Shown one piece after another: positions 10,351 to 29,046 of a stretch of DNA of 32,000 bases. The position numbers and the translations under genes were made by a program. The stretch covers positions 1-32,000 of the forward strand of contig JBBACA010000001.1 of assembly GCA_041657325.1 (NCBI GenBank), in the 5' to 3' direction. The stretch's first letter is position 1. Every line of letters starts with the position of its first letter. The notes beneath the pieces are model-generated. The model saw nothing but the letters and a program-made list of their open reading frames with translations, did no database searches and had not been told where the DNA came from. Source of the DNA: Minisyncoccota bacterium (GTDB taxonomy: Bacteria; Patescibacteriota; Minisyncoccia; Minisyncoccales; Minisyncoccaceae).

Positions 10351-10878
10351 ATGCAAATAGAAAAATTCAAAATAATTTCTTCAACCAATAAAAAAGCTAA
10401 AGAGATGAGCAATCTTGGTGTTGCTCCCTGGACGGTTATCGTTTCCGAAGTTCAGGAAAACGGATACGGGAGAAAAGGGGAGGCTTGGTATTCTCCTTTG
10501 GGAGGATTGTATTTTTCTATTATTCTTCCTCGTGGAAATATTGAAGACTTGCAGACGATAACTATTTTAGCTGCTTTCATTGTCGCTAAAGTAATTAAGG
10601 AATCTTTTAATATTGAACCCTTAATTAAATTACCGAACGATGTTTTATTAAACGGGAAAAAGATTTGTGGAATATTAACTGAAAATGTTATCGGTTCGGA
10701 GGTTAAACTTTCGGTGATTGGGATAGGAATTAATACTAATATTGAAAGTTTCCCAAATGAATTAAAAGATATTGCCACTTCTTTAAAGATGGAATTGGGG
10801 CATGAAGTTGATAATAATGTCTTATTAGAAAAAATAATTACTGAATTGAAAAATCAATTCAAAACAATTAGCGAATAA
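10351..10878 (+). CDS. birA: Biotin-protein ligase, catalytic domain only
   Basis: GRKGEAWYSPLGGLYFSIIL and KLPNDVLLNGKKICGILTE. At 175 aa it has no HTH and no C-terminal SH3-like domain. Confidence 0.75.
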   Translation: MQIEKFKIISSTNKKAKEMSNLGVAPWTVIVSEVQENGYGRKGEAWYSPLGGLYFSIILPRGNIEDLQTITILAAFIVAKVIKESFNIEPLIKLPNDVLLNGKKICGILTENVIGSEVKLSVIGIGINTNIESFPNELKDIATSLKMELGHEVDNNVLLEKIITELKNQFKTISE

Positions 10879-12725: not shown

Positions 12726-13505
12726 ATGATTGGTCAATTTATTCTAAATCAGCGTAAAAAACGCAATATAACCCAAGAATCTTTGGCTTCTTTGCTTAAT
12801 ATTTCTCGTCCGACTTATGTACAGATAGAGCAAGGAGAAAGAGATTTGACCGTAACCGAAGCGCAGAAGCTTTCGGAGGTTTTTGATATTTCATTAGAAG
12901 ATTTATTAAAAGGTAAAGAATTTCAAGAACCAAAATTTAAGATTGAAGAGAAAAAATCTAAAGTTGAAAAAGAAGAAGTTCGTATTAGCGTTCCTCAGGA
13001 AAAAATAGAAAAGTTTCGTCAAGTTTTACTATATATTCTTAAAAAAGTTGGTGGGAAGCCTAATGTCGGAATGACTGCGATATATAAATTTTTGTATTTT
13101 ATAGATTTTGACTACTACGAAAAATATGAGGAACAGTTAATGGGATTGAATTATATCAAAAATCATTATGGACCGACCCCTTTATTATTTGATAATCTTA
13201 TTAAAAAAATGATTAAGGATGGGGAGGTAGAAACAGTGAAGAGTAAATTTTATCAATATCCTCAAACTAAATATTTAGTTAATCCGGAAGTCGAGCCAGA
13301 TTTAACTGTATTGGACGGGAAAGAGAAAGAGCATATAGATTTTGAACTTCAAAGATTGTCTGATATGACAGCAATACAACTTTCAGATCTTTCCCACAAA
13401 GATGTGCCGTGGATAAGTGCGGAAAACGGCAAATCTATTAATTACGAATCGGTTTTTTACCGAACTAGTGATACTTCTTTGCGCGACTATGGAGAATCAG
13501 ATTAA
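12726..13505 (+). CDS. XRE-family HTH fused to DUF4065/Panacea (SocA-like) antitoxin domain
   Basis: The N-terminus (RKKRNITQESLASLLNISRPTYVQIEQGERDLT) is an HTH_XRE. The C-terminus (GMTAIYKFLYFIDFDYYEKYEEQLMGLNYIKNHYGPTP) matches the DUF4065 core pattern. Confidence 0.75.
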   Translation: MIGQFILNQRKKRNITQESLASLLNISRPTYVQIEQGERDLTVTEAQKLSEVFDISLEDLLKGKEFQEPKFKIEEKKSKVEKEEVRISVPQEKIEKFRQVLLYILKKVGGKPNVGMTAIYKFLYFIDFDYYEKYEEQLMGLNYIKNHYGPTPLLFDNLIKKMIKDGEVETVKSKFYQYPQTKYLVNPEVEPDLTVLDGKEKEHIDFELQRLSDMTAIQLSDLSHKDVPWISAENGKSINYESVFYRTSDTSLRDYGESD

Positions 13506-13860
13506 ATATGAAGAAACGAATGGTTTTCGTAAAGATTTTAAACGACTAGTTAAGAAATATAGAACTCTTAAAGAAGATTTAGAAGTTGTTAAAAGCAATA
13601 CAATCGAACTTTATCATTTAAAGGGCATAGAAAATCAGAGTATTTTTCCTATTCCTGGATTTTGTAATGAATCTTTGCAGATTTGTAAGATTAAAAAATT
13701 CGCTTGCAAAGCTTTGAAGGGACGAGGAGCTATGAGTGGAATAAGGGTTATTTATGCTTTTCATTTATCGTCTCATGTAGTTGAGTTTATAGAGATTTAT
13801 TTTAAAGGAGAGCAAGTCAATGAAAATAAGGAACGCATTAATGATTATTTGAAAAAATAG
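13489..13860 (+). CDS. RelE/ParE-superfamily-like type II toxin
   Basis: Start at ATG 13489 overlaps the antitoxin gene by 17 nt. FRKDFKRLVKKY .. GIRVIYAF .. VEFIEIYFK follows the RelE/ParE sequence pattern. Length 123 aa. Confidence 0.5.
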   Translation: MENQIKYEETNGFRKDFKRLVKKYRTLKEDLEVVKSNTIELYHLKGIENQSIFPIPGFCNESLQICKIKKFACKALKGRGAMSGIRVIYAFHLSSHVVEFIEIYFKGEQVNENKERINDYLKK

Positions 13861-13867
13861 TTACTGG

Positions 13868-13896
13868 TTTTCAATTGGCTCTTTTTTTGATAGAAT
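13868..13896 (+). promoter_or_regulatory. Possible extended -10 promoter for argS
   Basis: TTTTCA (13868-13873), a 17-nt spacer, then TG-A-TAGAAT (13888-13896). It would give a near-leaderless transcript for ATG 13905/13908. Confidence 0.3.
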
Positions 13897-13907
13897 ATGG
13901 ACATATG

Positions 13908-15470
13908 ATGAATGTGAGAGAAGAGATAAAGAATAGTGTCTCTAAATCACTTAAATCTCTGGGATACGGAGATGAGTTTGTGGTTAAAGTTTTAAAGCCT
14001 AAAGAGGCTTCTTTTGGTGATTATTCAGTTAGTGTGGCTATGGAAATAGCTAAAAAAGAAGGGCATAATCCTGCGGAAATTGCTGAAAAGATAAAAGAGA
14101 AAATTGATAATAAATACTTTGAAAAGATTGAAGTGGTTAATCCCGGCTTCATTAATTTCTTTATTTCTAAGGATTTAGTTTTAAATGAGATTCAGGAGGT
14201 TCTGAAAAAAGGAGACAAGTTCGGAGATTTGAATATTTCTAAGTCTAAGACTCAGGTTGAATTCATTTCTGCCAATCCAACTGGTCCTTTAACGGTCGGA
14301 AATGGCCGGGGAGGCCCCTTTGGAGATGTTTTAGCTAATGTTCTTGCTAAGACTGGGGCTAAGGTTGAAAAAGCCTATTATGTTAATGATTACGGTCAGC
14401 AGATACTGTCTTTGGGCCATTCGGTTTTAAAAGATGCTGACGCTAAATATGCAGGAGAATACATCGATGAATTGGCTTTATTAATTAAAGAAACAGATCC
14501 TTATAAAGTTGGAGTTAAAGCTTCTTCAATTGTTTTAGAAGGAATTAAAAAAACAGTTGCTAATTTAAATATTAAGTTTGATGAATGGTTTTCGGAAACT
14601 TCTTTGCATGATAAGGGGGAAGTTGAGAAAGTAATTGATTTTTTAAAGAAGAAAGGTTTTACCTATGAATCAGAAGGAGCTTTGTGGTTTAAATCAACTA
14701 TGTTCGGAGATGAGAGAGATAGGGTAATAGTTAAGACTGATCATAATAATACTTATTTAGCTGGAGATATTGCTTATCACCGCAACAAGTTTGAGAAAAA
14801 GAAATTTGATAAAGTGATTAATATTTGGGGAGCGGATCACTTTGGTGATGTTCCCGGGCTAATGGCCGGAGTTGAAGCCATCGGACACAAAGGACAATTA
14901 GAAATTGTCTTATTACAGTTTGTCACAGTCATGAAAGACGGCAAGCCGGTAAAGATGTCAAAGAGAATGGGCACCGCTATTTTAATGGATGATTTACTAT
15001 CTGAATTGCCTCCTGATGTAATAAAGTTTTTCTTTTTACAAAAATCAAACAATACTCATTTGAATTTTGATATGGATTTGGCCCGTGAGCAGTCAGAAAA
15101 GAATCCTGTTTACTATGTTCAATATGCTCATGCCCGTATTACAGGTGTTTTAAGGAATGCCGGCACTTCTTCAATCAAGAAGATTAATAATGTTTCTTTG
15201 CTTACTCATCCGAGTGAAATTGAATTAATGAAAGAGATATTGAAATTACCAGAAATAATAGAAGATACTTCTGTTGATTATCAAGTTCATCGTATTCCCC
15301 AGTATGCACTTGATTTGGCGACCTCTTTCCATAAGTTTTATAACGATTGTCATATTTTAGTCGAAGATGAAAAATTAAAAGAAGCAAGATTGGGCTTAGT
15401 CTGTGCTACCAAGATTGCTTTAAAGAATACATTAGAATTAATGGGAATATCTGCTCCCGAGCAGATGTAA
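13908..15470 (+). CDS. argS: Arginyl-tRNA synthetase
   Basis: SANPTGPL, WGADH, KMSKR, TYLAGDIAYH and YVQYAHAR, with the canonical C-terminus GISAPEQM. The HIGH position reads TVGN (14292-14303) rather than HxGH. Confidence 0.9.
   Translation: MNVREEIKNSVSKSLKSLGYGDEFVVKVLKPKEASFGDYSVSVAMEIAKKEGHNPAEIAEKIKEKIDNKYFEKIEVVNPGFINFFISKDLVLNEIQEVLKKGDKFGDLNISKSKTQVEFISANPTGPLTVGNGRGGPFGDVLANVLAKTGAKVEKAYYVNDYGQQILSLGHSVLKDADAKYAGEYIDELALLIKETDPYKVGVKASSIVLEGIKKTVANLNIKFDEWFSETSLHDKGEVEKVIDFLKKKGFTYESEGALWFKSTMFGDERDRVIVKTDHNNTYLAGDIAYHRNKFEKKKFDKVINIWGADHFGDVPGLMAGVEAIGHKGQLEIVLLQFVTVMKDGKPVKMSKRMGTAILMDDLLSELPPDVIKFFFLQKSNNTHLNFDMDLAREQSEKNPVYYVQYAHARITGVLRNAGTSSIKKINNVSLLTHPSEIELMKEILKLPEIIEDTSVDYQVHRIPQYALDLATSFHKFYNDCHILVEDEKLKEARLGLVCATKIALKNTLELMGISAPEQM
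15423..15470. repeat. 48-bp direct repeat, copy 1 (native argS 3' end)
   Basis: Identical at 47 of 48 positions to 17177-17224. Contains the 8-bp inverted repeat ATCTGCTC-CC-GAGCAGAT (15449-15466). Confidence 0.9.
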
Positions 15471-15474
15471 TTAT

Positions 15475-16161
15475 ATGGAACATTTTATTCAAATTAATTA
15501 TGGGGATTTATTTGTAGAAATGTTGAAGGTATTTGCTCAGCTTTGGTATGTATGGGCAATTATTATAGGAATGTTCTTTTTGAGATTATTTATTGATATT
15601 TGGTTACCGAAAATTGTCAAAAGATGGAATAATAATAGAAAGTTTAAAAGCGGAGAAAAATATAGGTCAGATGATGATTTAATAAGATGGCTTAGAGGGA
15701 TGACCCCAAATGAATTTGAAGAGTATATTGCCAATCTATTTAATCGTCTTGGATATAAAGCAGAAAAAGTCGGTGGTTCTTACGATGGAGGAATAGATGT
15801 GATTATTAAAAAAGATGGAGAAACGGGATATATTCAATGCAAGAAGTTTATAATAAAAGAAGTTCCAGTCGGAGCAGTTAGGGATTTTTACGGAGCTTTT
15901 ATTGGAAAACTCGCTACCAGTAAAGGCTATTTTATTTCTACGAATAAGTTTACCTTAGAAGCTATTAAGTTTGCAGAAGATAAGCCAATAGAATTAGTAG
16001 ATCATTTTAAATTAATTAAATATATTAATTTGGCAAATAAAAATAATATTTGTCCTCAGTGTGGAAATTTATTGATTGAAAAAAATGGAAAGTTTGGAAA
16101 GTTCTATGGGTGTTCTAATTATCCTAAATGCGATTTTACTAAAAATATTAAAAATGAATAA
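15475..16161 (+). CDS. Mrr-type restriction endonuclease domain protein with N-terminal TM helix and C-terminal topoisomerase-type C4 zinc finger
   Basis: Hydrophobic WYVWAIIIGMFFLRLFIDIWL. FEEYIANLFNRLGY .. YDGGIDVII .. YIQCKKF is a PD-(D/E)xK core of the Mrr_cat type. The finger is CPQCG..x..GCSNYPKC. Confidence 0.75.
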   Translation: MEHFIQINYGDLFVEMLKVFAQLWYVWAIIIGMFFLRLFIDIWLPKIVKRWNNNRKFKSGEKYRSDDDLIRWLRGMTPNEFEEYIANLFNRLGYKAEKVGGSYDGGIDVIIKKDGETGYIQCKKFIIKEVPVGAVRDFYGAFIGKLATSKGYFISTNKFTLEAIKFAEDKPIELVDHFKLIKYINLANKNNICPQCGNLLIEKNGKFGKFYGCSNYPKCDFTKNIKNE

Positions 16162-17231: not shown

Positions 17232-17269
17232 GGTTCGAATCCTAGTACCTCTGCCAACTTGAGCGTAGT
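17232..17269 (+). repeat. tRNA 3'-end-like fragment (GGTTCGAAT .. CTGCCA) plus 19-bp direct repeat, copy A
   Basis: A T-loop-like GGTTCGAATCC is followed 16 nt after the loop by a G-CCA end. CTGCCAACTTGAGCGTAGT (17251-17269) is identical to 18261-18279. No matching 5' acceptor or D arm is present. Confidence 0.6.
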
Positions 17270-17318: not shown

Positions 17319-18122
17319 ATGTCAAACAAAAGACCAATTGAACAACATTCTGATGATGGATTTATTCAAGGATTTGAAAAATACTTTTTAATAGATACTA
17401 TATTAAAAAGCAATTCTTGGGATGAATTAGTATCTAATATAGAAAAACTAAAAGTAAAATTTCCTTGGGAAAGTTTACTATTTAAAGAATTTAAGTTTTA
17501 TAACCTACTTAAAAAGGTGGAACAAAACATAAGTGACTTGCTCATAACTTTTTTAATAGAAAATAATTTCATCAATAAATCTCACGAAGACATCAAAAAA
17601 TATTTATTTGATAGAATAAAACAATATAGAAAAGATGGAGCAATTAGCGAAGCAATGAATGAAATTGAAGAAAAATTAAAAGAATGCAAGGATGAAAATT
17701 GCAAGTTAAAAAGATTACTTAATCCCGATTGTCTATTTTATATATCGGGAAGATATCTTGGAGATCTAATTTATATTATCAGGGAATATACTAATGACTT
17801 CGAAGATAAAACGGAATTGCTAGAAAAATTAAACAATTTTAACGATGCTAGGACAGACATCATACACAATTCATTGACTAGTAGAGGAGAAGGTTTATCA
17901 GAAATAATAGATAATGGACTAATATTGGGAAAAGAAATATTAGAAATAATTGATTTATTGCCCGAAGACGTTAATAATTCGAAAAACAATGAAGAATGTC
18001 CATTCTGTAAGCATAAAATAGGCCACCATCAAAAAATTGAATTAGAAAAAGATGGATCAAAAGAAATTGCCTATAAGTGCAAAGAAAAAGAATGCCCTTG
18101 CATTAAAATAGGGGAATGGTAA
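17319..18122 (+). CDS. Hypothetical protein with HEPN-like Rx4H motif and C-terminal Cys/His zinc-ribbon-like tail
   Basis: The protein looks alpha-helical. NDARTDIIHN (R178..H183, nt 17850-17867) lies where the HEPN Rx4-6H motif sits, ahead of a final helix. The tail is CPFCKHKIGHH..x..CKEKECPC. Confidence 0.4.
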   Translation: MSNKRPIEQHSDDGFIQGFEKYFLIDTILKSNSWDELVSNIEKLKVKFPWESLLFKEFKFYNLLKKVEQNISDLLITFLIENNFINKSHEDIKKYLFDRIKQYRKDGAISEAMNEIEEKLKECKDENCKLKRLLNPDCLFYISGRYLGDLIYIIREYTNDFEDKTELLEKLNNFNDARTDIIHNSLTSRGEGLSEIIDNGLILGKEILEIIDLLPEDVNNSKNNEECPFCKHKIGHHQKIELEKDGSKEIAYKCKEKECPCIKIGEW

Positions 18123-18170: not shown

Positions 18171-18265
18171 GGTAGCTCAAGTCGCGTCGATATGGTAAGA
18201 TAAAAGTACTTAAATTATCCTTATGGGGTATATATCCCTGGGGTTCGATCTCGACTTGGCCTGCC
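18171..18265. repeat. Imperfect 14-bp inverted repeat enclosing 67 bp
   Basis: GGTAGCTCAAGTCG (18171-18184) pairs with CGACTTGGCCTGCC (18252-18265): 11 Watson-Crick pairs, 2 G-U pairs if RNA, and 1 mismatch. The interior holds two small hairpins and the GGTTCGATC motif. Confidence 0.4.
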
Positions 18266-18279
18266 AACTTGAGCGTAGT
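18242..18279 (+). repeat. tRNA 3'-end-like fragment (GGTTCGATC .. CTGCCA) plus 19-bp direct repeat, copy B
   Basis: Same geometry as copy A: GGTTCGA, then 12 nt, then CTGCCA. The 19-mer at 18261-18279 is identical to copy A, 1010 bp downstream of it. Confidence 0.6.
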
Positions 18280-18398
18280 TAGAGCGCACGAGTCGCGTAG
18301 TTTTAAAAAAAACAATGATTACACCAAGAAACAATTTATTAACTATTATAATTGATGGAAGCACCTTATTATTTTGAGGTGTTTTATTTTGTAAAAAT

Positions 18399-21300
18399 AT
18401 GACAACCGATTTAACATTTATAACAAACGAGGAAGGTAAAAATCTAAAAGATAGATTTAATATACTTGTAAAAGATACTCGCTTTTTTGATGTGCTAGTT
18501 GGTTATTTTTACACAAGTGGGTTTTATGCAATATATCCTCAGTTGGAAAAAACGGAGAAAATAAGAATTCTTATTGGGATAAGCACTAACCAGCAAACAT
18601 ATAATCTGCTTCAAAAAATACAGTCTCACAAAGAAATTAACGAAGAAGTTGGCAATAAAGTAGTATCAGAAATGGATGAATGCGAAAATAATTTTCGTAT
18701 TGAAGAAGGTGTTTATAAATTCCTTGAATGGCTTAAAAGTGGAAAATTAGAAATTAAAGCATATCCGGAAGAAAAAATTCATTCAAAGCTTTACATAATG
18801 ACCTTTGAGGAAGATGATCGAGATATCGGCAGAGTCATCACAGGATCAAGCAATTTTACCAGAAGTGGTTTAATCGACAATCTAGAATTCAATGTCGAAC
18901 TTAAAAATCCATCAGACTACAAGTATGCGAAAGAAAAGTTTGATGAATTATGGAAAAAAGGAATTGATGTCAGTGAGAAATATATAGAAGCAATAACAGA
19001 AAATACTTGGCTGAAAGAAAACATAACACCTTACGAGTTATATCTTAAATTTCTCTACGAATACTTTAAGGAAGAAATAAATGAAAAAGACGCACTGGAG
19101 CACAGCTATCGGCCAGATAATTTTAAAGAATTAAAATATCAAGATCATGCAGTTATAAATGCGAAAAAAATTGTAGAAGAATATGGTGGCGTATTTTTAT
19201 CAGATGTAGTTGGGCTTGGAAAGACATTTATGGGCACAATGCTTTGTGAAGAATTGCCGGGCAGAACCCTTGTTTTGGCACCACCTCACTTAATTGATGA
19301 AAGCAATGAAGGTAGCTGGGAAAATGCCTTTAAAAATTTTGGATTTCGTTCGAAGGATTACAAATGCGAATCTATTGGAATGTTGGAGAAAATAATTAAA
19401 AAAGAATTATATAAAAAATTTGATATAGTCCTTATTGATGAATCGCACCGCTTTAGAACGGAAGATACCGAAACATATGCAAAACTTGCTCAGATTTGTC
19501 GTGGGAAAAAAGTAATACTTGTTACTGCTACGCCATACAACAACTCCCCAAAAGATTTATTGGCTCAAATTAAACTTTTTCAGCGTATAAAAAACAGCAC
19601 TATTCCAAATCTACCAAATATTGAAGGATTTTTTAAAAAACTCGAAAGGAATTTAAAAGGATTAGATAGAAAAAAAGATAAAACAGAATATTTAGAGATA
19701 ACGAAAACGAATTCAAAACTTATTAGAGAAAAAGTCCTTAAATATTTAATGGTAAGAAGAACCAGAAAAGAAATCCAGAAGTATTATGGCGAAGATCTAA
19801 AAAAGCAAAAAATGAAGTTTCCGGATATTGCCGATCCACAACCTATTTATTATGAATTTAATAAAAAAGAGGATCAAGTATTTTTTAAAACAATTGAAAT
19901 AATATCAAAAGATTTCAAATATGCACGTTATACGCCACTTCTTTATCGTAAAGGTGAATTAGGTTCGGAAGAACAACGACAGAAAAACATGAGGAAGTTT
20001 ATGAAAATGATGCTTATTAAGCGTTTAGAAAGCAGTTTTTTTGCTTTTAATCAATCTGTATATCGTTTTATTAATTCATATCAAAAATTTATCGAAGAAT
20101 ATAAGTTAGGTAGCGTCTATGTAAGCAAAAAGCACATAAAGAAGGTTTTTGATTATTTAGAAAGTGGAAATATAGACGCAATAGATCTATTAATATCTGA
20201 AGAAAAAGCAGAAAAATTTTCCAGTAAAGATTTTAAAGAAGACTTTATAAAAGATTTGCAAAAAGACTTAGAAACATTACTGAAAATCAAAGACTTGTGG
20301 AAAGATATAGATAGAGATCCTAAAATAATTGCCTTCAAAGAAAAATTAGCGGATCAGGAACCACTGAAGGCAGGCAAATCGATAATTTTCACAGAGTCAA
20401 AGGAAACTGCTGAATATCTTGTTAAGAATTTACAAGACACATTTCCAGATCAAATCCTTTATTTTTCAGGTGGAAGCTCGCAGAACGAGAGAGAGATTGT
20501 AATGGAAAATTTTGATGCAAATTCAAAAAAAATAAAAAATGATTATAAGTTTTTAATCACTACAGATGTTTTGGCTGAAGGAGCAAACTTACATCAGGCG
20601 AATGTGGTTATCAACTATGATATACCTTGGAATCCAACTCGCATTATGCAAAGAGTTGGTCGTATCAATCGTGTAGACACAAAACATGACAAAATATATA
20701 CCTATACATTTTTCCCCACAGAACAATCAAATGAGCAAATTAAGCTAAAGGAGCTAGCTGAAGCAAAAATACAAGCTTTCATAACACTGCTTGGCACTGA
20801 TGCAAAATTATTAACCGAAGGCGAAGTCCCAGAAGGACATAGTTTATTTAAGAGAATTCTATCAAAAGAAATGATTGAGGGAGAAGAGAATGAGAGTGAG
20901 AGTGAATTAGGATACTTACAGGAAATTAGAAAAATACGAGATGATAGTCCAGCCCTATTTGAAAAGATTAAGAAGCTACCCAAAAAAGCACGTACCGCAC
21001 GAAAATTCCAAGGAGTAAATTCAGAGCTTTTAACATATTTTAGAAAAGGAAAATTACAAAAATTCTTCATAGTTCAATCTGGCACAACTTCTATTTCGTC
21101 TGAAATTGATTTTATGGAAGCGGCGAAAAAACTTGTAGCAAAACAAAATGAAAAACAATCAAAACTAAACAAGTTGTTCTATGAAATGCTAGACAAGAAC
21201 CTAGAAATGTTAAAAAAAGTAGATGAATATGATATTGATGAATATTCTTCTAAAAGAGGCAACGGAGACAATGCGGCTCGTCTCTCTAAAATTTTAAACG

Positions 21301-21584
21301 CCAAAGAAATAAAGAAATATCAAGGCTTTACGGATGATGACGAACTTTATCTTAAACACGTTATTAATGAGCTTGATTCGGGTGGTATACCAAAAAAGAT
21401 TACCCAAAAATTATATAAAAAAATACAAGAAACTCCTGAAATAATTCAAAATCCTATAAAACTTTTGGCTATTTTAAAAACAACACTCCCAAGTGATTTC
21501 CTCCAACCAACACAGAACGATATAGATAAAGGGATAAATAGCAAAAAAGAAATTATAATTTCTGAATATTTTAATGCTGAATAA
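18399..21584 (+). CDS. HKD (phospholipase-D-family) nuclease domain fused to SNF2-family helicase/translocase
   Basis: There is a single HKD motif, HSKLYIM..x..GSSNFTRSG, starting at nt 18780 (H128, K130). SNF2 motifs are VVGLGKTFMG (I), LIDESHRF (II), VTATPYNN (III), and TDVLAEGANLHQANVVINYDIPWNPTRIMQRVGRINR (V-VI). A ~270-aa C-terminal region is unassigned. Confidence 0.85.
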   Translation: MTTDLTFITNEEGKNLKDRFNILVKDTRFFDVLVGYFYTSGFYAIYPQLEKTEKIRILIGISTNQQTYNLLQKIQSHKEINEEVGNKVVSEMDECENNFRIEEGVYKFLEWLKSGKLEIKAYPEEKIHSKLYIMTFEEDDRDIGRVITGSSNFTRSGLIDNLEFNVELKNPSDYKYAKEKFDELWKKGIDVSEKYIEAITENTWLKENITPYELYLKFLYEYFKEEINEKDALEHSYRPDNFKELKYQDHAVINAKKIVEEYGGVFLSDVVGLGKTFMGTMLCEELPGRTLVLAPPHLIDESNEGSWENAFKNFGFRSKDYKCESIGMLEKIIKKELYKKFDIVLIDESHRFRTEDTETYAKLAQICRGKKVILVTATPYNNSPKDLLAQIKLFQRIKNSTIPNLPNIEGFFKKLERNLKGLDRKKDKTEYLEITKTNSKLIREKVLKYLMVRRTRKEIQKYYGEDLKKQKMKFPDIADPQPIYYEFNKKEDQVFFKTIEIISKDFKYARYTPLLYRKGELGSEEQRQKNMRKFMKMMLIKRLESSFFAFNQSVYRFINSYQKFIEEYKLGSVYVSKKHIKKVFDYLESGNIDAIDLLISEEKAEKFSSKDFKEDFIKDLQKDLETLLKIKDLWKDIDRDPKIIAFKEKLADQEPLKAGKSIIFTESKETAEYLVKNLQDTFPDQILYFSGGSSQNEREIVMENFDANSKKIKNDYKFLITTDVLAEGANLHQANVVINYDIPWNPTRIMQRVGRINRVDTKHDKIYTYTFFPTEQSNEQIKLKELAEAKIQAFITLLGTDAKLLTEGEVPEGHSLFKRILSKEMIEGEENESESELGYLQEIRKIRDDSPALFEKIKKLPKKARTARKFQGVNSELLTYFRKGKLQKFFIVQSGTTSISSEIDFMEAAKKLVAKQNEKQSKLNKLFYEMLDKNLEMLKKVDEYDIDEYSSKRGNGDNAARLSKILNAKEIKKYQGFTDDDELYLKHVINELDSGGIPKKITQKLYKKIQETPEIIQNPIKLLAILKTTLPSDFLQPTQNDIDKGINSKKEIIISEYFNAE

Positions 21585-21586
21585 TT

Positions 21587-24500
21587 ATGAATAAAAACGA
21601 AGCAAAAGAAATAATCAGTTCAACCTTTAGTAGTGATTTTGATGGACAAAGATATGAGAAGTTTGTAGCAAATCTATTCAAAAAGTATCAACCAATAGAT
21701 AAAATCATTGAGGGACAATATATAAAGTTGGCCTATAAATCTTTTGTAATCAAATACAAAATCACAGGTACTTTTGAGGACGGGGAGGGACATAAAATTG
21801 ATATTCTTGAGGTTAATCTAAGTAATGCATCAACTTTGGAGCGCGCTAGAACAGCACAAAGAAATTTTGTTGCTGAATATCTAAAAGATAGAAATAAAGA
21901 TGCTGCCCTAGTTGCATTTGTTTCCCCAGATAATAAAGAGTGGAGATTATCGCTGGTAAAGATAGAAAACTTCTTAGAAGTCATAGATGAAAAATTAAAA
22001 ACTAAAGAGGAGATAACACCGGCAAAAAGATGGTCTTTTTTGGTGGGTAAAAATGAAGGAAGCCACACCGCTCAAAGTAGATTTGTAAAAATGCTTATAA
22101 GCGATGAGGATCCAAACCTAGCCGAACTTGAATCAGCTTTTGATATTGAAACAGTAACCAAAGAATTTTTCCATAAATACACGGAACTATATTTCCAGCT
22201 TAAAGGTCATTTGGATTCTTTGATGGCAAGAGATGAGATAATCAAAAAAGACTTTGAGGGAAAAGAAATATCAACAATTGATTTTGCTAAAAAAACATTA
22301 GGACAAATAGTTTTCTTGTATTTTTTACAAAAAAAAGGTTGGTTTGGGGTTTCTCCTGATAAACAGTGGGGCGAAGGTCCTAAAAGATTTTTGCGAGAAG
22401 TGTTTGAGAGAAGAAACAAATATGGTAAAAACTTCTTCAACGACATCTTAGAGCCATTATTTTATAAAGCACTTGCTCAAGATAGAGGGACAGAATCAAT
22501 TTACCCAGATTTAAATAATTGCAGAATGCCATTTTTGAATGGTGGCCTTTTCGAGCCGATGAACGGCTATTTGTGGGAAACGACAGACATAATTATTCCT
22601 GATGAATTATTTTCTAATGACATAACGGATAAAAAAACAGGAGACAAGGGAACTGGAATTTTGGATGTATTTGATAGATACAATTTTACGGTAAATGAAA
22701 ACGAACCTTTAGAAAAAGAGGTAGCAGTTGATCCTGAAATGCTCGGAAAGGTGTTTGAAAATCTTTTGGATATAAAAGATCGCAAGAGTAAGGGGGCTTT
22801 TTATACTCCTCGTGAAATTGTGCACTATATGTGTCAAGAAAGTTTAATCAACTATCTACACGCCGAAACGAACAATGAAATCTCGCGCAATGATTTAGAA
22901 TTGTTTATCCAAAAAGGAGATAGAATAATTGAAAATGATAAAATTGCTTTGGAGAGAAAAGAAGAGAGAATAAAAAAGTACAGAAATGATAAATATAAAG
23001 ACTCGACTTACAGCTTATTACTGCCAATATCAATACGGACAAAGGCCGAAAAGCTTGATGAACTTTTAAAAAACATAAAAGTGGCTGATCCTGCCGTTGG
23101 TTCCGGAGCTTTTCCACTTGGAATGATTAATGAAATTGTGCGTGCGAGAAAAGTTTTAAATGTGTATCTAAAAAGCGACATATCAGATTATGAGCTGAAA
23201 AAGCACACGATCACTCATTCTATCTATGGCGTTGATATTGACCCGGGTGCGGTAGATATTGCCAAACTACGACTATGGCTGGCATTGGTGGTTGATGAAG
23301 AAACTCCTCACCCATTGCCAAACCTTGAGCATAAAATTATGCAAGGGAACAGCCTTATTTCCGAGTATGAAGGAATCAAGTTATTTAATGAAAGTATTTT
23401 CGAAGAAGATGAGAAGAAAGAGATGAAACAAGCTCAGCTTGGACTTGGAAAAACAAGATCGGAAATAAAAATGGAGATACTGCAAGATAGAATCGCATCA
23501 TTTGTAAATGAATCGCAGAGAACCAAAAAGCAAAATCTCAAAAAAGAGATTGACGATTTGAAGTGGGAACTTATTGAAGAAACACTCAAAGAACAAGGTA
23601 AGGAAGATAAACTGGAAGATATCAAAAAACTCCGTCGAAAAAATATCCGCCCGTTTTTTATTTGGAAACTGGAATTTAGTGATGTTTTTAAAGAAAAAGG
23701 CGGGTTTGATGTGGTAATTGGGAATCCACCGTATATACAACTCCAAAAAAATAAGGGAGAGTTATCCAATATGTTTGAAAAATGCGGATTTGAAAGTTTT
23801 GCCAGAACCGGGGATATCTATTGTTTGTTTTATGAATTGGGAAATCAGCTTTTGCAAAAACATGGCCATCTTGTTTTTATTACTTCTAATAAATGGATGC
23901 GAGCAGGATATGGTGAAAAATTGAGACAATATTTAGCGGAAAATACTACGCCCGAATTATTAATTGATCTTGGTCCGGGAGTTTTTGAAACTGCAACGGT
24001 TGATACCAATATTTTACTTTTCCAAAAAGAAAAAACAGAAAAAGCTTGTGTTGCATGTAGCGTGAAAGAAAATTTAACAAAAAAGAATGTTCATTTTACA
24101 GATTATATTGTTAAAAACAAAGTGGGATTAAATCAATTTTCTGGTGATGCCTGGATTATTTTGAATCCAATTGAAATGAAAATAAAAGAAAAGATAGAAA
24201 AAATAGGCACACCATTGAAAGATTGGGATATAAAAATAAATCGTGGAGTTTTAACAGGTTACAATGAAGCGTTTATTATTGATGGGAAAAAGAAAGATGA
24301 ATTGATTGCTAAAGATCTAAAAAGTGCCGAGATTATCAAGCCGATTTTGAGGGGGAAAGATATTAAAAGGTATCATGCTGACTTTGCTGATTTGTGGTTG
24401 ATTGCAGGTCATAATGGCTACAAAAAGGAAAGCGAAGAAATGGTTGAATCAATAAATGTTGAAAAATATCCTGCTATAAAAGAGTGGTTAGATAGTCATT

Positions 24501-25024
24501 GGGAGCAAATATCAAAGCGAGGAGATAAGGGGAAAACTCCTTATAATCTCAGAAATTGTGCGTATCAAGAAGAATTTGAAAAGGAGAAGGTGGTATATTC
24601 TGAAATTGTGAGAGAACCGCAATTTTATTTTGATAATGATAGATATTTTCCAGAAGCAACATCATTTTTAATGACAGGAAAAGATGTTAAATTTCTAACC
24701 ACGATTCTAAATTCAAAATTTTTTACTTATTTATTTACAAACTTTTATGCAGGAGGAGGGCTTGGAGACAATGGTTATAGATATAAAAAGATATTTTTAG
24801 AACTTTGTCCTATCCCTCAAATCTCTCCCGAAGCTCAAAAACCATTCATCGACCTCGTTGATCAAATCCTTGAAATTACTTCCTCTCCCGACTATAACCC
24901 AAAAAATCCTCCAGTTAAACAAAAAGAATTGGAAAAGCAAATTGATGAGTTGGTTTATAAACTCTACGACCTTACCCCAGAAGAAATTGAAATTGTAAAA
25001 AATTCAAGCAAGAAAAATGAGTAA
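21587..25024 (+). CDS. Eco57I/type IIG-like gamma-class N6-adenine DNA methyltransferase with TaqI-C-like target-recognition domain
   Basis: FYTPREIV, DPAVGSGAFP (motif I), YGVDIDPGAVDIAKLRLWL, and VIGNPPY (motif IV, NPPY at 23723-23734). TRD-type signatures are GVLTGYNEAFII and PILRGKDIKRY. The start lies 3 nt after the helicase stop. Confidence 0.9.
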   Translation: MNKNEAKEIISSTFSSDFDGQRYEKFVANLFKKYQPIDKIIEGQYIKLAYKSFVIKYKITGTFEDGEGHKIDILEVNLSNASTLERARTAQRNFVAEYLKDRNKDAALVAFVSPDNKEWRLSLVKIENFLEVIDEKLKTKEEITPAKRWSFLVGKNEGSHTAQSRFVKMLISDEDPNLAELESAFDIETVTKEFFHKYTELYFQLKGHLDSLMARDEIIKKDFEGKEISTIDFAKKTLGQIVFLYFLQKKGWFGVSPDKQWGEGPKRFLREVFERRNKYGKNFFNDILEPLFYKALAQDRGTESIYPDLNNCRMPFLNGGLFEPMNGYLWETTDIIIPDELFSNDITDKKTGDKGTGILDVFDRYNFTVNENEPLEKEVAVDPEMLGKVFENLLDIKDRKSKGAFYTPREIVHYMCQESLINYLHAETNNEISRNDLELFIQKGDRIIENDKIALERKEERIKKYRNDKYKDSTYSLLLPISIRTKAEKLDELLKNIKVADPAVGSGAFPLGMINEIVRARKVLNVYLKSDISDYELKKHTITHSIYGVDIDPGAVDIAKLRLWLALVVDEETPHPLPNLEHKIMQGNSLISEYEGIKLFNESIFEEDEKKEMKQAQLGLGKTRSEIKMEILQDRIASFVNESQRTKKQNLKKEIDDLKWELIEETLKEQGKEDKLEDIKKLRRKNIRPFFIWKLEFSDVFKEKGGFDVVIGNPPYIQLQKNKGELSNMFEKCGFESFARTGDIYCLFYELGNQLLQKHGHLVFITSNKWMRAGYGEKLRQYLAENTTPELLIDLGPGVFETATVDTNILLFQKEKTEKACVACSVKENLTKKNVHFTDYIVKNKVGLNQFSGDAWIILNPIEMKIKEKIEKIGTPLKDWDIKINRGVLTGYNEAFIIDGKKKDELIAKDLKSAEIIKPILRGKDIKRYHADFADLWLIAGHNGYKKESEEMVESINVEKYPAIKEWLDSHWEQISKRGDKGKTPYNLRNCAYQEEFEKEKVVYSEIVREPQFYFDNDRYFPEATSFLMTGKDVKFLTTILNSKFFTYLFTNFYAGGGLGDNGYRYKKIFLELCPIPQISPEAQKPFIDLVDQILEITSSPDYNPKNPPVKQKELEKQIDELVYKLYDLTPEEIEIVKNSSKKNE

Positions 25025-25025
25025 T

Positions 25026-25253
25026 ATATCTGATAAAATTAATGAGCTGGAGATGGCTGATTATTTTGATGATTTGGTGCAATACGCCAACGAGCAAGTC
25101 AGCCCGATTGAAAAAGCTTGCTGATGGCTCTAGCGAGATGGGAGAAGCAGCTCTAAAAGATGGACTAATAGATAAAATTGGCATATATCAGACGTATTAA
25201 ATTTTCTCTCCGAAAAGATAGGCACGACAGCTGATATTTGTTGGGAAAATTAA
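25026..25253 (+). pseudogene. Frameshifted 3' fragment of an sppA paralog
   Basis: It translates in two frames to ..YFDDLVQYANEQVSPIE / KKLADGSSEMGEAALKDGLIDKIGIY / DVLNFLSEKIGTTADICWEN. This is collinear with the last ~75 aa of SppA (26440-26667). By hand alignment, 62 of 73 nt are identical between 25114-25186 and 26533-26605. It has no 5' part. Confidence 0.8.
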
Positions 25254-25268
25254 ATAATTAATAAAAAT

Positions 25269-25769
25269 ATGAATATTCATAATATCGAGTTCTCAAGAAA
25301 TTTAGTAAAGGGACGAATCGCTGAAATATTATTTGAACAAATGCTACGTGATACTGGATATTTTACTATTCTTGCTTTTGGATATGAAAATATACTTCCA
25401 GAACTGGCACATCGTCAAAATGATATGCAGGCACAAGAAACAATGGAGATTATCCGACGTGCACCAGATTTTGCTGTTATTGATAATGAATCTCATGAGG
25501 TATATTTAGTCGAAGTAAAATACATGATGCGTCCTACGGTTGAAAAGATTATCGCGGCTTCTAAAAGAATGTTTGAATCTTGGAAACCATCTTACCTTTT
25601 TCTAGCGACCCCAGATGGATTCTTTTTTGATAAAGCTAGCGATATATTAGAAAAAGAGGGAATTATTTCTCCAATTAATAATCCGAAAATACCTAAAGAG
25701 CTTCAAGATAAATACAGGGAAATTCTTAATGAATTTATTGTTCAAAATTCAGAAACAAGTGAAGATTAA
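25269..25769 (+). CDS. Small hypothetical protein with PD-(D/E)xK nuclease-like motif
   Basis: GRIAEILFEQML .. APDFAVID .. VYLVEVKY gives an E..D67..E82-x-K84 arrangement, as in YraN/Hjc-type nucleases. Length 166 aa. Confidence 0.4.
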   Translation: MNIHNIEFSRNLVKGRIAEILFEQMLRDTGYFTILAFGYENILPELAHRQNDMQAQETMEIIRRAPDFAVIDNESHEVYLVEVKYMMRPTVEKIIAASKRMFESWKPSYLFLATPDGFFFDKASDILEKEGIISPINNPKIPKELQDKYREILNEFIVQNSETSED

Positions 25770-25794: not shown

Positions 25795-26667
25795 ATGAAA
25801 ATAATTATTCCCAGAACCATTAAATCTTCTTTTAATGTAATCTCTATTCTTGTAGTAATAGCTCTTTGGTCTGGTATTTCATATTATGTGATATCAAATA
25901 TATCAAAAACATCTCCTAGTATAACAACGACAGACACTTCTACTACTGAAGAATCATCTGAACCAGAAAACTGTAATGTTTACGGAATCAATCTACATGG
26001 TGACGTTGTGACCTACAACAGCAATGACTCATACAATGACCAATATGACGTAATATATGATCAAACATCAGCTGATGATATAATTTGGGCTGTAAACGAA
26101 GCTCAAGGTAATGACAAGATAAAGGCAATAGTAGTGGAAATAGATTCATATGGAGGTTCGGGTGTGGCCGGAGAAGAAATGATGACAGTTTTTAAACAAT
26201 CTAGAAAACCTGTAATAGCTTTTATCCGTAATGCTGGTTTATCAGCTGCATATTTGGCAGCTACTGGAGCAGAAACTATTTTTGCTTCTAACTTCTCTGA
26301 TGTTGGAAGTATTGGTGTTACTATGTCTTACCTACAAGAAGCGGAAAAGAATACAAAAGAAGGATTATCATATGTAAACTTAAGTTCAGGAGCATATAAA
26401 GACACTGGCAATCCTGCTCGTACATTATCCGAAGATGAAAAACAGCTATTAATGAGAGATATTAAAATAGGTCATGAGTATTTTGTAAAGCTTGTTTCAG
26501 AGAATCGTAATTTGAGTATTGAAACAGTGAGAAAGCTTGCTGACGGTTCTAGTATGATGGGAGAGGCAGCACTAAAAAATGGACTGATAGATAAAATAGG
26601 AATATTTCCAGATGTAGTAGATTTCCTTTCTGAAAAAATAGGTACTCCTGCTGAAATTTGCTGGTAA
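25795..26667 (+). CDS. sppA: Signal peptide peptidase SppA (S49, 36K type)
   Basis: N-terminal TM helix. IDSYGGSG, the GLSAAYLAATGA Ser context, and the GAYKDTGNP Lys context. Confidence 0.85.
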   Translation: MKIIIPRTIKSSFNVISILVVIALWSGISYYVISNISKTSPSITTTDTSTTEESSEPENCNVYGINLHGDVVTYNSNDSYNDQYDVIYDQTSADDIIWAVNEAQGNDKIKAIVVEIDSYGGSGVAGEEMMTVFKQSRKPVIAFIRNAGLSAAYLAATGAETIFASNFSDVGSIGVTMSYLQEAEKNTKEGLSYVNLSSGAYKDTGNPARTLSEDEKQLLMRDIKIGHEYFVKLVSENRNLSIETVRKLADGSSMMGEAALKNGLIDKIGIFPDVVDFLSEKIGTPAEICW

Positions 26668-26715: not shown

Positions 26716-29046
26716 ATGGGTGATTTATTTTATATTTTTATTTGTGTATTCATAATCGGACTTATCTCGTGGTGTTTTAATGGTGGCAAAAAAAATAATC
26801 AAAAAAGTGAATCTATAGGAAGAGGACTAAAAGAAGAAATTATAGAAATACAAAAAAATGAAGAAAAAAAAATTAGAGAATTAATTTTAGAGAGACAAAG
26901 AAAAAAAGTGGAACGAATTAAGAAAGGAGAAGATGCTGTAGAAAAAATAAAAGCAGACGAAGAGCGAACTAGAAAAGAGACGGTGAAAATAATAAAGGAA
27001 GAAAATCAAAAAAACGAGAAAAAGATTCTAAATGAAAAAAGAATCGTAAATACAATGAATAAAATTGTTTTTAACGAGGAAAAAAAACACCTCCTAGGCG
27101 TCTTGAGTGCACTAAATGAAGAAAGTAAAAAAATAGAAAATTTAATGCCTCCAAAGGCTGATTTCAGTGGAGTCATGGAAGAAAGTCAAAGAATGTATGA
27201 AGTTGAAAAAAATGCAAAAATTGTCGATATAAAAAAAGAACTGAAAAATATTGAATCTCTAAAGAACCGTCCATACTATGCAAGGATAGACTTGCTTGTT
27301 GATGGAGAAGAAAACCCTAGCATTAATTATATAGGCGCTTGTGCTTTTAATATTGAAGGCTACCTTGTTAGTAGTGTATGGAGCGAAGTGGGAAGTAGAT
27401 ACCGTGCAAAAAATATTTTAGAGTTTAAGGTGAATAGCGGTATCACGTACCAAATTTTGAAAAGAAGAATAATTGATATAAAAAGTGGGAACTTAGTGGA
27501 GTGTCACGATGAATACTCGATTGATAATGAATTTTCAAAAAATAGTATAACCGATCCATTTTTATTAAAAATTCTTCATGAAAAAAAAGGGGATCGTAAA
27601 CTAAGTGACATAATTAGAACAATCCAACTTAATCAAAATGACATTATTGAATACGATTTTAATAAAAGTTTAATTGTTCAGGGTTGTGCCGGATCTGGAA
27701 AAACAATGATACTTCTTCATAGATTAGCAAATATTCTTTTCAATAAAAATGATTTAAATTTGAAAAAAATAAAAATTATTACACCTAGTGAAAAATTTAT
27801 TGATTATATTGATGAATTATCAAAATTTTTAAAATTAGAAGAAATAGAGAAAAATACAATAGAGATATACTATCAAAATTTACTATTTCGTTACGGCGAA
27901 AAAACAAATAAATGTCAACCTTTATCTGATTATGATATTGATTATGATTTGTTAGTTTATGTTTATTCAAATAATTTTATTAGTGACTGTGAAAAAAACA
28001 TTGAGTTATTGAAAGTAGAAAATGATAAAAAAAATTCTGAGATTGATAGGAAGAAAAAAGATAAGTATCTACAGAAAATTATTCAGAAAATAATAGAGAA
28101 AATAATCAGAGAGAAAGGATTTAAAATAAAAATAAACCATAATGCTCGTTTTTGTTTATATGCAAGACTAGTATTCTATTATTTATGTAAAGGAAAGACA
28201 CGATCTCCAGATACCATGTTACACATCGACGAAGGACAGGATATTTCTAAGGTAGAATACGAACTACTTAAAAAAATTAATCCTGGAATAATATTTAATA
28301 TTTATGGTGATACAAATCAACTTATCCGCCAAAAAGTTGGGATAAACAATTGGGAAAATTTTTCAAAAGAAACTGCTTTCTTTCTTCTGAATGAAAATTA
28401 CAGAAACACTAGAGAGATAACAAATTATTGTAACAAAATGTTAAATATCAATTCAATACCGATAGCTATTGATGGAAATAAAGTTTTAGCCATTGAAATT
28501 GATAAGTTCAATAATGTAATTAATAGTGAGCATTTTAACAAAAGAATAGCAATAATTGCAAAAGACAATGAACTGCTTGAAAAAGTAAAATTAAATAAAA
28601 CAATAAATCTTGCTATTAAAAATGGTAATTTATCTTGTCTTACCGTTGCTCAAGCAAAAGGATTTGAATTTGATAAGGTCTATGTCTTTGTTCAGGGAAT
28701 GAATAGAAACGAAAAGTATATTTCATTTACTAGAACCTTAAACGACTTAATAATTATTGCGCCAAGAATACCATTAATATACGAATCTGGAGAGGGAAAC
28801 TTGCAAAATATTAAAAAAATATTGGACTCTGGAGTGAATATTGATGAAAAGGATTATAATCTCGGAATTACTTCATTAATGATAGCTTCTGCAAGGGGAC
28901 ACTTTGAGATTGCAAAAGAGCTAATTAACAGAGGGGCAGATATTAATATGCAAAGTATTGAGGGAAAAACAGCCTTGTTTTATGCCAAAAATAAAGAATA
29001 TTATGATATCGTTAATATTTTGAAAGAAGCTGGAGCAAAAGAATAG
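26716..29046 (+). CDS. Membrane-anchored HelD/UvrD-like SF1 helicase with K/E-rich coiled coil and C-terminal ankyrin repeats
   Basis: TM segment LFYIFICVFIIGLISWCF, followed by ~100 aa of K/E-rich helix. RPYYARIDL..INYIG is HelD-type by my recollection. Walker A is GCAGSGKT. The DExx box is HIDEGQD. Also ENYRNTREI and AQAKGFEFDKVYVF. Two to three ANK repeats follow (GITSLMIASARGHFEIAKELINRGADIN .. GKTALFYA). Confidence 0.75.
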   Translation: MGDLFYIFICVFIIGLISWCFNGGKKNNQKSESIGRGLKEEIIEIQKNEEKKIRELILERQRKKVERIKKGEDAVEKIKADEERTRKETVKIIKEENQKNEKKILNEKRIVNTMNKIVFNEEKKHLLGVLSALNEESKKIENLMPPKADFSGVMEESQRMYEVEKNAKIVDIKKELKNIESLKNRPYYARIDLLVDGEENPSINYIGACAFNIEGYLVSSVWSEVGSRYRAKNILEFKVNSGITYQILKRRIIDIKSGNLVECHDEYSIDNEFSKNSITDPFLLKILHEKKGDRKLSDIIRTIQLNQNDIIEYDFNKSLIVQGCAGSGKTMILLHRLANILFNKNDLNLKKIKIITPSEKFIDYIDELSKFLKLEEIEKNTIEIYYQNLLFRYGEKTNKCQPLSDYDIDYDLLVYVYSNNFISDCEKNIELLKVENDKKNSEIDRKKKDKYLQKIIQKIIEKIIREKGFKIKINHNARFCLYARLVFYYLCKGKTRSPDTMLHIDEGQDISKVEYELLKKINPGIIFNIYGDTNQLIRQKVGINNWENFSKETAFFLLNENYRNTREITNYCNKMLNINSIPIAIDGNKVLAIEIDKFNNVINSEHFNKRIAIIAKDNELLEKVKLNKTINLAIKNGNLSCLTVAQAKGFEFDKVYVFVQGMNRNEKYISFTRTLNDLIIIAPRIPLIYESGEGNLQNIKKILDSGVNIDEKDYNLGITSLMIASARGHFEIAKELINRGADINMQSIEGKTALFYAKNKEYYDIVNILKEAGAKE

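Follow-up and report, generated by a model that had tools for sequence, protein, structure and literature searches.

The window analysed here is a 32,000-nucleotide (nt) stretch of DNA from a Minisyncoccota bacterium (assembly GCA_041657325.1, contig JBBACA010000001.1). Two adjacent genes on its forward (+) strand encode a 1061-amino-acid (aa) protein, in which a phospholipase D (PLD)-type HKD nuclease is fused to an SNF2 motor, and an 1145-aa Eco57I-like adenine methyltransferase. We conclude, with a probability of roughly 0.6, that they form a mobile, two-gene, ATP-dependent, restriction-modification (R-M)-like defence cassette, in which restriction would be guided by the methylase and executed by the HKD-SNF2 protein. 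The evidence lies in the domain content of the pair, its conserved catalytic residues, the near-obligatory pairing of the two genes, the modular exchange of the target-recognition domain (TRD) and purifying selection. The original prediction, made from the letters of the sequence, had placed the two open reading frames (ORFs) at 18399-21584 (1061 aa) and 21587-25024 (1145 aa) of the + strand, exactly where they were recovered. The features of the cassette, with the evidence used for each in brackets, are as follows.

18372..18398, +: short upstream leader travelling with the cassette, and left end of a 97%-identical block shared with a second copy, L083 (blastn, terminator scan)
18399..21584, +: HKD(PLD)-SNF2 nuclease-translocase gene, 1061 aa, hereafter the helicase (ORF, Pfam, PADLOC)
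18558..18953, +: PLD-family (HKD) nuclease domain, aa 54-185 (Pfam PLDc_2, invariant residues, motif scan)
19125..20675, +: SNF2-type motor, from the N-lobe (aa 243-496) to the C-lobe Helicase_C (aa 655-759) (Pfam, Foldseek, motifs)
20796..21581, +: C-terminal helicase region, aa ~800-1061 (no Pfam match, conserved positions, BLASTP)
21587..25024, +: Eco57I-like N6-adenine DNA methyltransferase of the gamma class, including a TRD of its own, 1145 aa, hereafter the methylase (ORF, Pfam, PADLOC, Foldseek)
21587..22276, +: family-specific N-terminal domain of the methylase, aa 1-230 (column counts, model secondary structure)
23087..23734, +: catalytic core of the methyltransferase, motif I DPAVGSGAF (23087-23113) through motif IV NPPY (23723-23734) (motif scan, invariant columns)
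23735..24843, +: target-recognition block that can be exchanged, with TaqI_C at 24338-24751 (windowed identity, blastn break points, Pfam, tblastn)
24844..25018, +: conserved C-terminal helical tail of the methylase and right end of the cassette homology (blastn against L083, 87% identity)

Domain composition of the two proteins

The helicase has more than 7900 homologues. Pfam placed a PLDc_2 match at aa 54-185 (E 4e-10) and a motif scan found one HKD signature only, H128-S-K130 followed by G149-S-S-N152. Because a single HxK and a single GSSN are present, each helicase chain should contribute one nuclease half-site. The N-lobe of the motor was covered by ResIII and SNF2-rel_dom matches (aa 243-496) and the C-lobe by Helicase_C (aa 655-759, E 9e-24), and the motif scan located the Walker A motif GLGKT (aa 272-276, nt 19212-19226), DESH (aa 347-350, nt 19437-19448), TATP (aa 376-379) and QRVGRINR (aa 751-758). 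When 18 homologues of 60-84% identity were aligned, the HKD and the superfamily 2 (SF2)/SNF2 motifs were all invariant. An AlphaFold2 model of the protein (pLDDT, predicted score in the local distance difference test, 69; predicted template modelling score (pTM) 0.44) was compared with the Protein Data Bank (PDB) using Foldseek; the top matches were CSB, Chd1, ISWI, Mot1, the Zorya protein ZorD and RapA, which assigns the motor to the SNF2 family. Pfam, the motif scan and Foldseek thus bear out the single HKD motif and complete SNF2 motor that had been read from the translation.

The region following the motor (aa ~800-1061) matched no Pfam family. It is kept within the clade and divergent in a distant Lactococcus homologue (L081), against which the BLASTP alignment ends at about aa 811, and we regard it as a candidate partner-binding region. 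Pfam detected no recognisable modification-reading domain in the helicase. Its best PADLOC match, over the full length and with 170 bits, was C3a139 'HKD+Snf2', which is a candidate accessory family of type III CRISPR (PMC6546367), and the PADLOC matches to DrmD (110 bits) and BrxH were partial only. Helicase homologues carry weak precomputed matches to PF09565 (RE_NgoFVII). A PDB sequence search returned no close solved relative for either the helicase or the methylase, and no NCBIfam model reached its cut-off for either protein.

Only 2 nt separate the helicase stop codon, ending at 21584, from the methylase ATG at 21587. Pfam matches in the methylase were Eco57I (aa 544-797, E 5e-42), N6_Mtase, MmeI_Mtase and TaqI_C (aa 918-1055). 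Motif I (DPAVGSG, residue 501) precedes NPPY (residue 713) and the specificity domain is C-terminal, the order that defines the gamma class. The earlier description as a gamma-class methylase with a TaqI_C-like domain therefore stands, and all the domains for which scans had been proposed (PLDc_2, SNF2, Helicase_C, Eco57I and TaqI_C) were found by Pfam. The REBASE-derived PADLOC model REase_MTase_IIG (PDLC03596) covered the protein end to end with 998 bits. The second-best PADLOC type IIG model aligned from residue 232 onward only, so that related REBASE families share the core and not the N-terminal domain. The AlphaFold model of the methylase (pLDDT 74, pTM 0.43) resembled CamA and M.BseCI in its catalytic and TRD portion, and PglX/BrxX, MmeI and BpuSI over roughly 1000 columns (Foldseek); the PDB sequence search gave no match to MmeI.

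We looked closely at aa 1-230 of the methylase, where a true type IIG enzyme, which joins nuclease and methyltransferase in one chain, carries its PD-(D/E)XK nuclease. The model secondary structure showed an alpha-beta-beta-beta-alpha-beta topology resembling the restriction-endonuclease core, and column counts revealed conservation of D65, D72, R88, Q91, R92 and N93, with D65 and D72 nearly invariant. The position of the would-be (D/E)XK lysine is, however, occupied by leucine or isoleucine (L/I74) in 26/26 sequences, and E75 and N77 are variable. PDB profile and Pfam searches at E<=10 returned chance-level matches only and no nuclease relative, and sequence profiles gave no match to MmeI, BpuSI or other nucleases. 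The methylase thus has the type IIG-like combination of a gamma-class N6-adenine methyltransferase fused to its own TRD (an Eco57I/MmeI-like core) and lacks the nuclease in the same chain, and the type IIG label attached to it by REBASE-derived tools fails on this defining feature. The earlier statement that no nuclease motif could be seen in the methylase holds. A scan of 1.84 billion representative proteins found the N-terminal domain in 1283 clusters; among the 150 best matches listed it nearly always stood at the extreme N-terminus, mostly of proteins of 1000-1340 aa, a placement that makes it a signature of this methylase family. We infer that it is a degenerate nuclease fold, and propose that it serves as a docking domain.

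Pairing, transfer and specificity exchange

The distribution of the pair was surveyed with one genome per species. Helicase relatives are encoded in at least 584 species genomes of many phyla, among them Bdellovibrionota, Campylobacterota, Chloroflexota, Nitrospirota, Omnitrophota, Verrucomicrobiota, many lineages of the candidate phyla radiation and a nanoarchaeon. The 80 best loci were examined, 70 of which had at least 600 bp of downstream sequence. In 65 of these 70 the methylase N-terminus was found downstream of the helicase on the same strand, with a gap of at most 40 nt in 42 of the 65 (typically 2-5 nt). The five non-pairing loci comprise an orphan helicase (L076), a locus with a truncated methylase (L019) and three contigs that end early, one of which (L071) runs out inside an inserted gene. 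Starting from the methylase side, an HKD-SNF2 gene lay directly upstream in 6/7 sampled cases, the seventh being an orphan methylase (L088). When all flanking ORFs of the 80 loci were clustered, no third conserved gene emerged, the next commonest family being present in 8/80. The helicase is 50-57% identical across phyla and is far more conserved than the methylase TRD.

In 19 of the 65 paired loci, 0.6-2.1 kb of DNA lies between helicase and methylase. The genes found there are of the SLFN/AlbA_2+HATPase_c_4, Bro-N, KilA-N, Fic and AbiEii kinds (for example L016:7228-8586, L032:11208-12041, L045:11192-12253 and L008:11441-12088). Genes of the SLFN/AlbA_2, Bro-N, KilA-N, Fic and AbiEii kinds are frequent passengers in type I R-M operons. 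An additional subunit encoded between the two genes was considered and rejected, these being heterogeneous hitchhikers. Defence genes frequently lie beside related loci, CBASS in L090 being one example. A gene of 72-74 aa with an HTH_3/HTH_19 domain stands directly upstream of the helicase in two loci (L090:1053-1277 and L092:1090-1308) and is absent from the window; its products resemble the controller (C) proteins of R-M systems.

A second copy of the cassette, in an unrelated context, was found in L083. It is 97% identical in DNA sequence to positions 18372-23734 of the window and 87% identical to 24844-25018 (blastn), and it adjoins a serine-recombinase element and an AAA_15/AAA_21 ATPase. 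Between these blocks, protein identity falls to 14-48% over methylase residues ~717-1100 (windowed identity). The break lies directly after the NPPY codons (23723-23734 / 23735) and homology returns at 24844, indicating that specificity was swapped as a block while the remainder of the cassette stayed nearly identical. Across loci, the tblastn alignment likewise drops out in the 23735-24843 target-recognition block. Between the window and L083 copies, the ratio of non-synonymous to synonymous substitution rates (dN/dS) is 0.093 in the helicase gene and 0.091 in the methylase gene, there calculated over the first 700 codons, from which we conclude that selection maintains both genes. A terminator-like hairpin at 18358-18385 overlaps the leader (18372-18398), and a sigma-70 promoter scan gave nothing better than shuffled sequence.

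Synteny observed from both sides, joint transfer, the absence of a third conserved gene and purifying selection support the view that helicase and methylase are one functional unit, as the original prediction had assumed. Its division of labour is also consistent with these data, the variable TRD being in the methylase, the catalytic residues of the helicase being conserved and a conserved nuclease triad being absent from the methylase.

Some relatives carry inverted spare TRD segments 3' of the methylase (L063:13879-15732, L064:13775-16865 and L081:8763-10230), which share inverted repeats with the expressed TRD. L081, the Lactococcus plasmid pJM1F, also has an Mpi-family invertase. This arrangement suggests phase-variable specificity in some family members and agrees with the programmed inversions reported at a 'type II R-M CDS with an adjacent PLD+SNF CDS' (PMC9881135). 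The window copy has no inverted spare TRD.

Known systems, proposed mechanism and competing explanations

The closest described design is that of pLd8 orf33-orf35 and of L. cremoris pJM1F (L081), a putative 'type IIG' system with the same two genes in the same order: the PLD+SNF2 helicase comes first and the Eco57I-like methylase, bearing a TaqI_C TRD, second. The pair in the window has both features of a pLd8 orf33/34-type cassette, namely a single-HKD PLD domain fused to an SNF2 motor and a nuclease-less Eco57I-like methylase-TRD immediately downstream on the same strand. The proteins are homologous, the helicases being 25-30% identical over the HKD and motor and the methylases 33% over aa 233-1138. 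L081 nevertheless belongs to a distant clade, has a helicase of 1233 aa, and adds the inverted spare TRD gene and the Mpi invertase. Its first 230 methylase residues and its helicase C-terminus are unalignable with ours; the methylase N-terminal domain and helicase aa ~800-1061 are thus the parts that fail to align with the Lactococcus homologue, whereas the cores align. For L. lactis pLd8, van Mastrigt et al. (2018) described a PLD+SNF2 gene with a nuclease-less 'type IIG' methylase gene after it, named the PLD protein as the probable cutter, and noted that the homologue is entered in REBASE as type IIG (PMC6098607). Morgan et al. (2009) had reported that nuclease-less MmeI homologues are invariably flanked by a helicase and proposed a type I-like R-M system (PMC2731913), and Milman et al. 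(2023) met such pairs among inverting loci (PMC9881135). The architecture has therefore been in print since 2009-2018 and is not new as such. The same three papers agree with the earlier opinion that it is recognised and mechanistically uncharacterised, no mechanistic paper being present in the literature searched. Experiments exist only for the analogous YeeA/B/C family, and none were found on HKD-SNF2 pairs.

That family (DnmA(YeeA)-YeeB-YeeC of B. subtilis and yeeAB of Vibrio) follows the same logic, with a nuclease-less methylase-TRD linked to a separate SF2 helicase and nuclease. Its methylase is of the MmeI family and its gene comes first, and its nuclease is a separate GIY-YIG/T5orf172 protein, in contrast to the Eco57I-type methylase and fused HKD of the window. 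The Vibrio yeeAB pair, a nuclease-less MmeI-like methylase with a helicase, protects against phage (bioRxiv 10.1101/2021.05.05.442762), whereas the B. subtilis copy is inactive (PMC7261158, PMC9973331).

The pair was also compared with larger systems. Class 1 DISARM contains the same domain types (SNF2, Eco57I-like N6-adenine methylase and PLD). It has in addition DrmA and DrmB, and its PLD is a separate protein (DrmC), unlike the PLD domain fused to the SNF2 protein here. PADLOC matches of the pair to DrmD and DrmMI were partial, with about 110 bits each, the NCBIfam model DISARM_DrmD scored 133 against a cut-off of 610, and the pair matched the DISARM equivalogs DrmD, DrmMI and DrmC only in part. 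Neither drmA (the DUF1998-associated helicase) nor drmB was found among the scanned window ORFs of 80 aa or more, of which the Pfam scan covered all but two on the + strand (10351-10878 and 13417-13860). PglX models reached 111 bits on the methylase against a cut-off of 500 (NCBIfam), and PglZ and BrxC/PglY are absent from the window, so that the pair does not belong to BREX types 1-6. Type-2 BREX-related DUF499 systems have the same effector as the pair, a Swi2/Snf2 helicase with a fused HKD endonuclease at its N-terminus, which a 2026 survey predicted to restrict while an N6-methylase protects (PMC12839542). They are, however, centred on a DUF499 AAA+ ATPase with DUF3780 and use another methylase; neither DUF499 nor DUF3780 occurs in the window or in the flanks of the 80 related loci.

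Type ISP enzymes (LlaGI, LlaBIII) combine the same functional set, nuclease, ATP-driven motor, gamma-class adenine methylase and TRD, and methylate one strand (PMC2790903, PMC3553950). They do so in a single chain with an Mrr/PD-(D/E)XK nuclease and a type I-like motor rather than SNF2, and the effector half is not homologous. Consisting of two polypeptides with a PLD nuclease and an SNF2 motor, the pair is not a type ISP enzyme. The original prediction had called it a relative of type ISP and type III systems; it is analogous to type ISP, I and III systems and not homologous, because its motor is SNF2, its nuclease PLD and its methylase nearest to the Eco57I/PglX/DrmMI type. SauUSI (type IV) and the HKD enzymes of the BfiI/NgoFVII type share the N-terminal single-HKD nuclease, which SauUSI couples to a helicase-like motor. 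SauUSI differs in reading modified cytosines through its own C-terminal domain without a methylase partner, and its motor is not of the SNF2 family. The pair therefore matched none of the systems (type IIG, DISARM, BREX, type ISP and DUF499) with which it was compared.

Single-HKD nucleases such as Nuc and BfiI act as dimers, and SauUSI is a PLD-helicase ATP-dependent restriction enzyme. Type ISP enzymes cut when converging translocases collide (PMC3553950). We propose an ATP-dependent R-M-like mechanism because of the intact nuclease-motor and methylase-TRD, their pairing, the location of the TRD in the methylase, and these three precedents. The methylase, which unlike true type IIG enzymes either lost its PD-(D/E)XK nuclease or never possessed one, would be the sequence reader, its exchangeable C-terminal TRD binding an asymmetric target in which the gamma-class NPPY domain would methylate an adenine, thereby marking self DNA. 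We infer a physical interaction of the two proteins and licensing by unmethylated sites, at which the family-specific N-terminal domain of the methylase would recruit or license the helicase. The SNF2 motor of the effector would then hydrolyse ATP and translocate on double-stranded DNA away from the unmethylated site. Two helicase chains would have to meet to complete one PLD active site from their single HKD half-sites; cuts should therefore fall at points where two motors meet or stall, remote from the recognition sites. Probably two unmodified sites would be needed for cleavage, a requirement that would also deal with the difficulty posed by methylation of one strand only. By analogy, the translocation-collision cleavage of type ISP enzymes offers the best model for the action of the pair, and we hold this specific collision step tentatively, at slightly less than even odds. 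Equally provisional is the wider proposal of a distinct, widespread class of ATP-dependent R-M system meriting its own subtype, in which the N-terminal domain would load the SNF2 translocase and colliding single-HKD motors would cut, a metal-independent and independently evolved counterpart of type ISP.

Several observations weigh against methylase-guided restriction by the pair. The orphan helicase L076:169-3378 has no methylase within 8 kb, and the orphan methylase L088:6001-9723 stands in a housekeeping context without a helicase. In the literature searched, HKD-SNF2 plus Eco57I-like pairs are recognised only as an architecture, and no experiment on them was found; neither plasmids nor phages are restricted by the analogous B. 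subtilis cluster DnmA-YeeB-YeeC (PMC7261158, PMC9973331). The structural models are of moderate confidence (pLDDT 69/74, pTM 0.44/0.43). BREX and DISARM, which have related SNF2 and methylase proteins, are not simple cutters of unmethylated DNA. Finally, the conserved D65 and D72 may belong to a non-canonical active site in the methylase itself, although we judge such a site quite improbable. In that case the methylase would by itself be a true type IIG enzyme, a single chain whose N-terminal nuclease is non-canonical, and the HKD-SNF2 protein an enhancer or a second, independent effector. The end-to-end match to the REBASE-derived type IIG model of PADLOC (998 bits), the alpha-beta-beta-beta-alpha-beta topology and the spacing of the two near-invariant aspartates as D-x6-D-x-(K) are in its favour. 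It is countered by leucine or isoleucine at the lysine position in 26/26 sequences, by the variability of E75 and N77 and by the lack of a sequence-profile or Pfam match of the domain to MmeI, BpuSI or other nucleases; the authors who described the Lactococcus homologue also saw no restriction domain (PMC6098607), and the near-obligatory helicase partner would be left unexplained.

Exclusion in the manner of BREX or DISARM is another reading, an unlikely one in our view. The methylase would mark self DNA, and the SNF2 protein, through remodelling or occupancy, would keep unmarked DNA from being replicated or injected; the HKD domain would be accessory or have a substrate other than bulk target DNA, and no collision cleavage would take place. 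This would suit the nearest relatives named by hidden Markov models (DrmD/DrmMI, PglX and BrxHII), the full-length fold match of the methylase to PglX, and the fact that BREX and DISARM work by mechanisms other than simple restriction (PMC12839542). On the other hand, PglZ, BrxC, DrmA and DrmB are absent from the window and are not conserved in the 80 loci, and the invariant HKD catalytic residues argue for an active nuclease. The locus might also be a relic or an epigenetic regulator, with an orphan or regulatory methylase and a helicase-nuclease that no longer restricts, as in the precedent of B. subtilis DnmA-YeeB-YeeC (PMC7261158, PMC9973331); orphan methylases of the family do exist and the locus lies amid housekeeping genes. 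We find this very unlikely, since both ORFs are intact with every catalytic motif, dN/dS is ~0.09 relative to the 97%-identical cassette elsewhere, and a module that is active and mobile is indicated by the recent exchange of the TRD and by the insertion scar. Least probable of all, and by our estimate highly improbable, is that the two proteins act independently, the HKD-SNF2 protein being a stand-alone, SauUSI-like modification-dependent enzyme or a repair enzyme beside a methylase. SauUSI is indeed a known stand-alone PLD-helicase restriction enzyme and one orphan helicase locus (L076) was seen; gene order with 2-5 nt spacing is nevertheless kept across phyla, the cassette is transferred jointly, Pfam recognised no modification-reading domain in the helicase, and a modification-dependent nuclease beside an active methylase would be self-destructive.

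Methylase-guided restriction executed by the HKD-SNF2 protein, if true, would represent a compact and re-targetable ATP-dependent restriction system, the specificity of which is changed by the swap of one block starting right after NPPY. It would also provide the simplest available context in which to ask what couples a methylation reader to an SNF2 motor in bacteria, a question raised by BREX and DISARM. Annotation tools likely misfile the family, calling the methylase a single-chain type IIG enzyme and ignoring the helicase-nuclease or calling it DrmD-like; the pair should be called as one system and the methylase should not be counted as a type IIG nuclease.

Flanks and remaining genes of the window

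Two features lie outside the system, one on each side.

18261..18279, +: left flank, second copy of an exact 19-nt direct repeat (repeat search)
25026..25245, +: right flank, frameshifted remnant of an S49 peptidase gene, 3' end (direct repeat D1, tblastn)

Insertion scars had been claimed at both of these places, and the one on the right (25026) was upheld. The relic at 25026-25245 corresponds to some 80 codons at the end of an S49 peptidase gene, with 78-81% identity in two frames (tblastn). An intact S49 peptidase paralogue is present 0.8 kb downstream, at 25795-26667, the part matching the relic being 26450-26667. As the relic follows right after the methylase stop codon, the cassette must have landed in the gene and truncated it. 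A 166-aa ORF (25269-25769) stands between the relic and the intact paralogue.

On the left, the claimed scar at 18261-18279 belongs to a neighbouring 1-kb insertion. The first copy of the 19-nt repeat is at 17251-17269 (wider copies at 17232-17269 and 18242-18279), none being expected by chance, and the two copies bracket an ORF at 17319-18122 (267 aa, no family matched), not the helicase-methylase pair. Each copy is preceded by a GGTTCGA...CTGCCA string resembling a tRNA 3' end. ARAGORN, and Rfam even at E<=1, detected no tRNA or tmRNA at the left repeat or anywhere in the window; a tRNA at these strings was rejected on these grounds and they are called tRNA-3'-like only. The repeats at 17251-17269 and 18261-18279 resemble the att sites that a small integrated element would have.

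Elsewhere the window carries housekeeping genes, those of fatty-acid synthesis, acetyl-CoA carboxylase and two arginyl-tRNA synthetase paralogues, to which are added a few defence-flavoured genes, encoding an Mrr-type nuclease, a helix-turn-helix (HTH) plus Panacea protein and a UvrD-ankyrin helicase. The two arginyl-tRNA synthetase paralogues are full-length and lie on the same strand within 13 kb (682-2280 and 13875-15470). Directly after the second one, 15475-16161 encodes a small protein that joins an Mrr_cat nuclease to a C4 zinc ribbon of the topoisomerase type; PADLOC matched it weakly to the nuclease domain of ZorD and to type IV restriction enzymes. The HTH_3 and SocA/Panacea antitoxin-type protein encoded at 12726-13505, possibly with an overlapping downstream partner (13417-13860), is a candidate toxin-antitoxin component or defence regulator. 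At 26716-29046, a UvrD-like superfamily 1 helicase bears C-terminal ankyrin repeats and has weak PADLOC matches to GajB.

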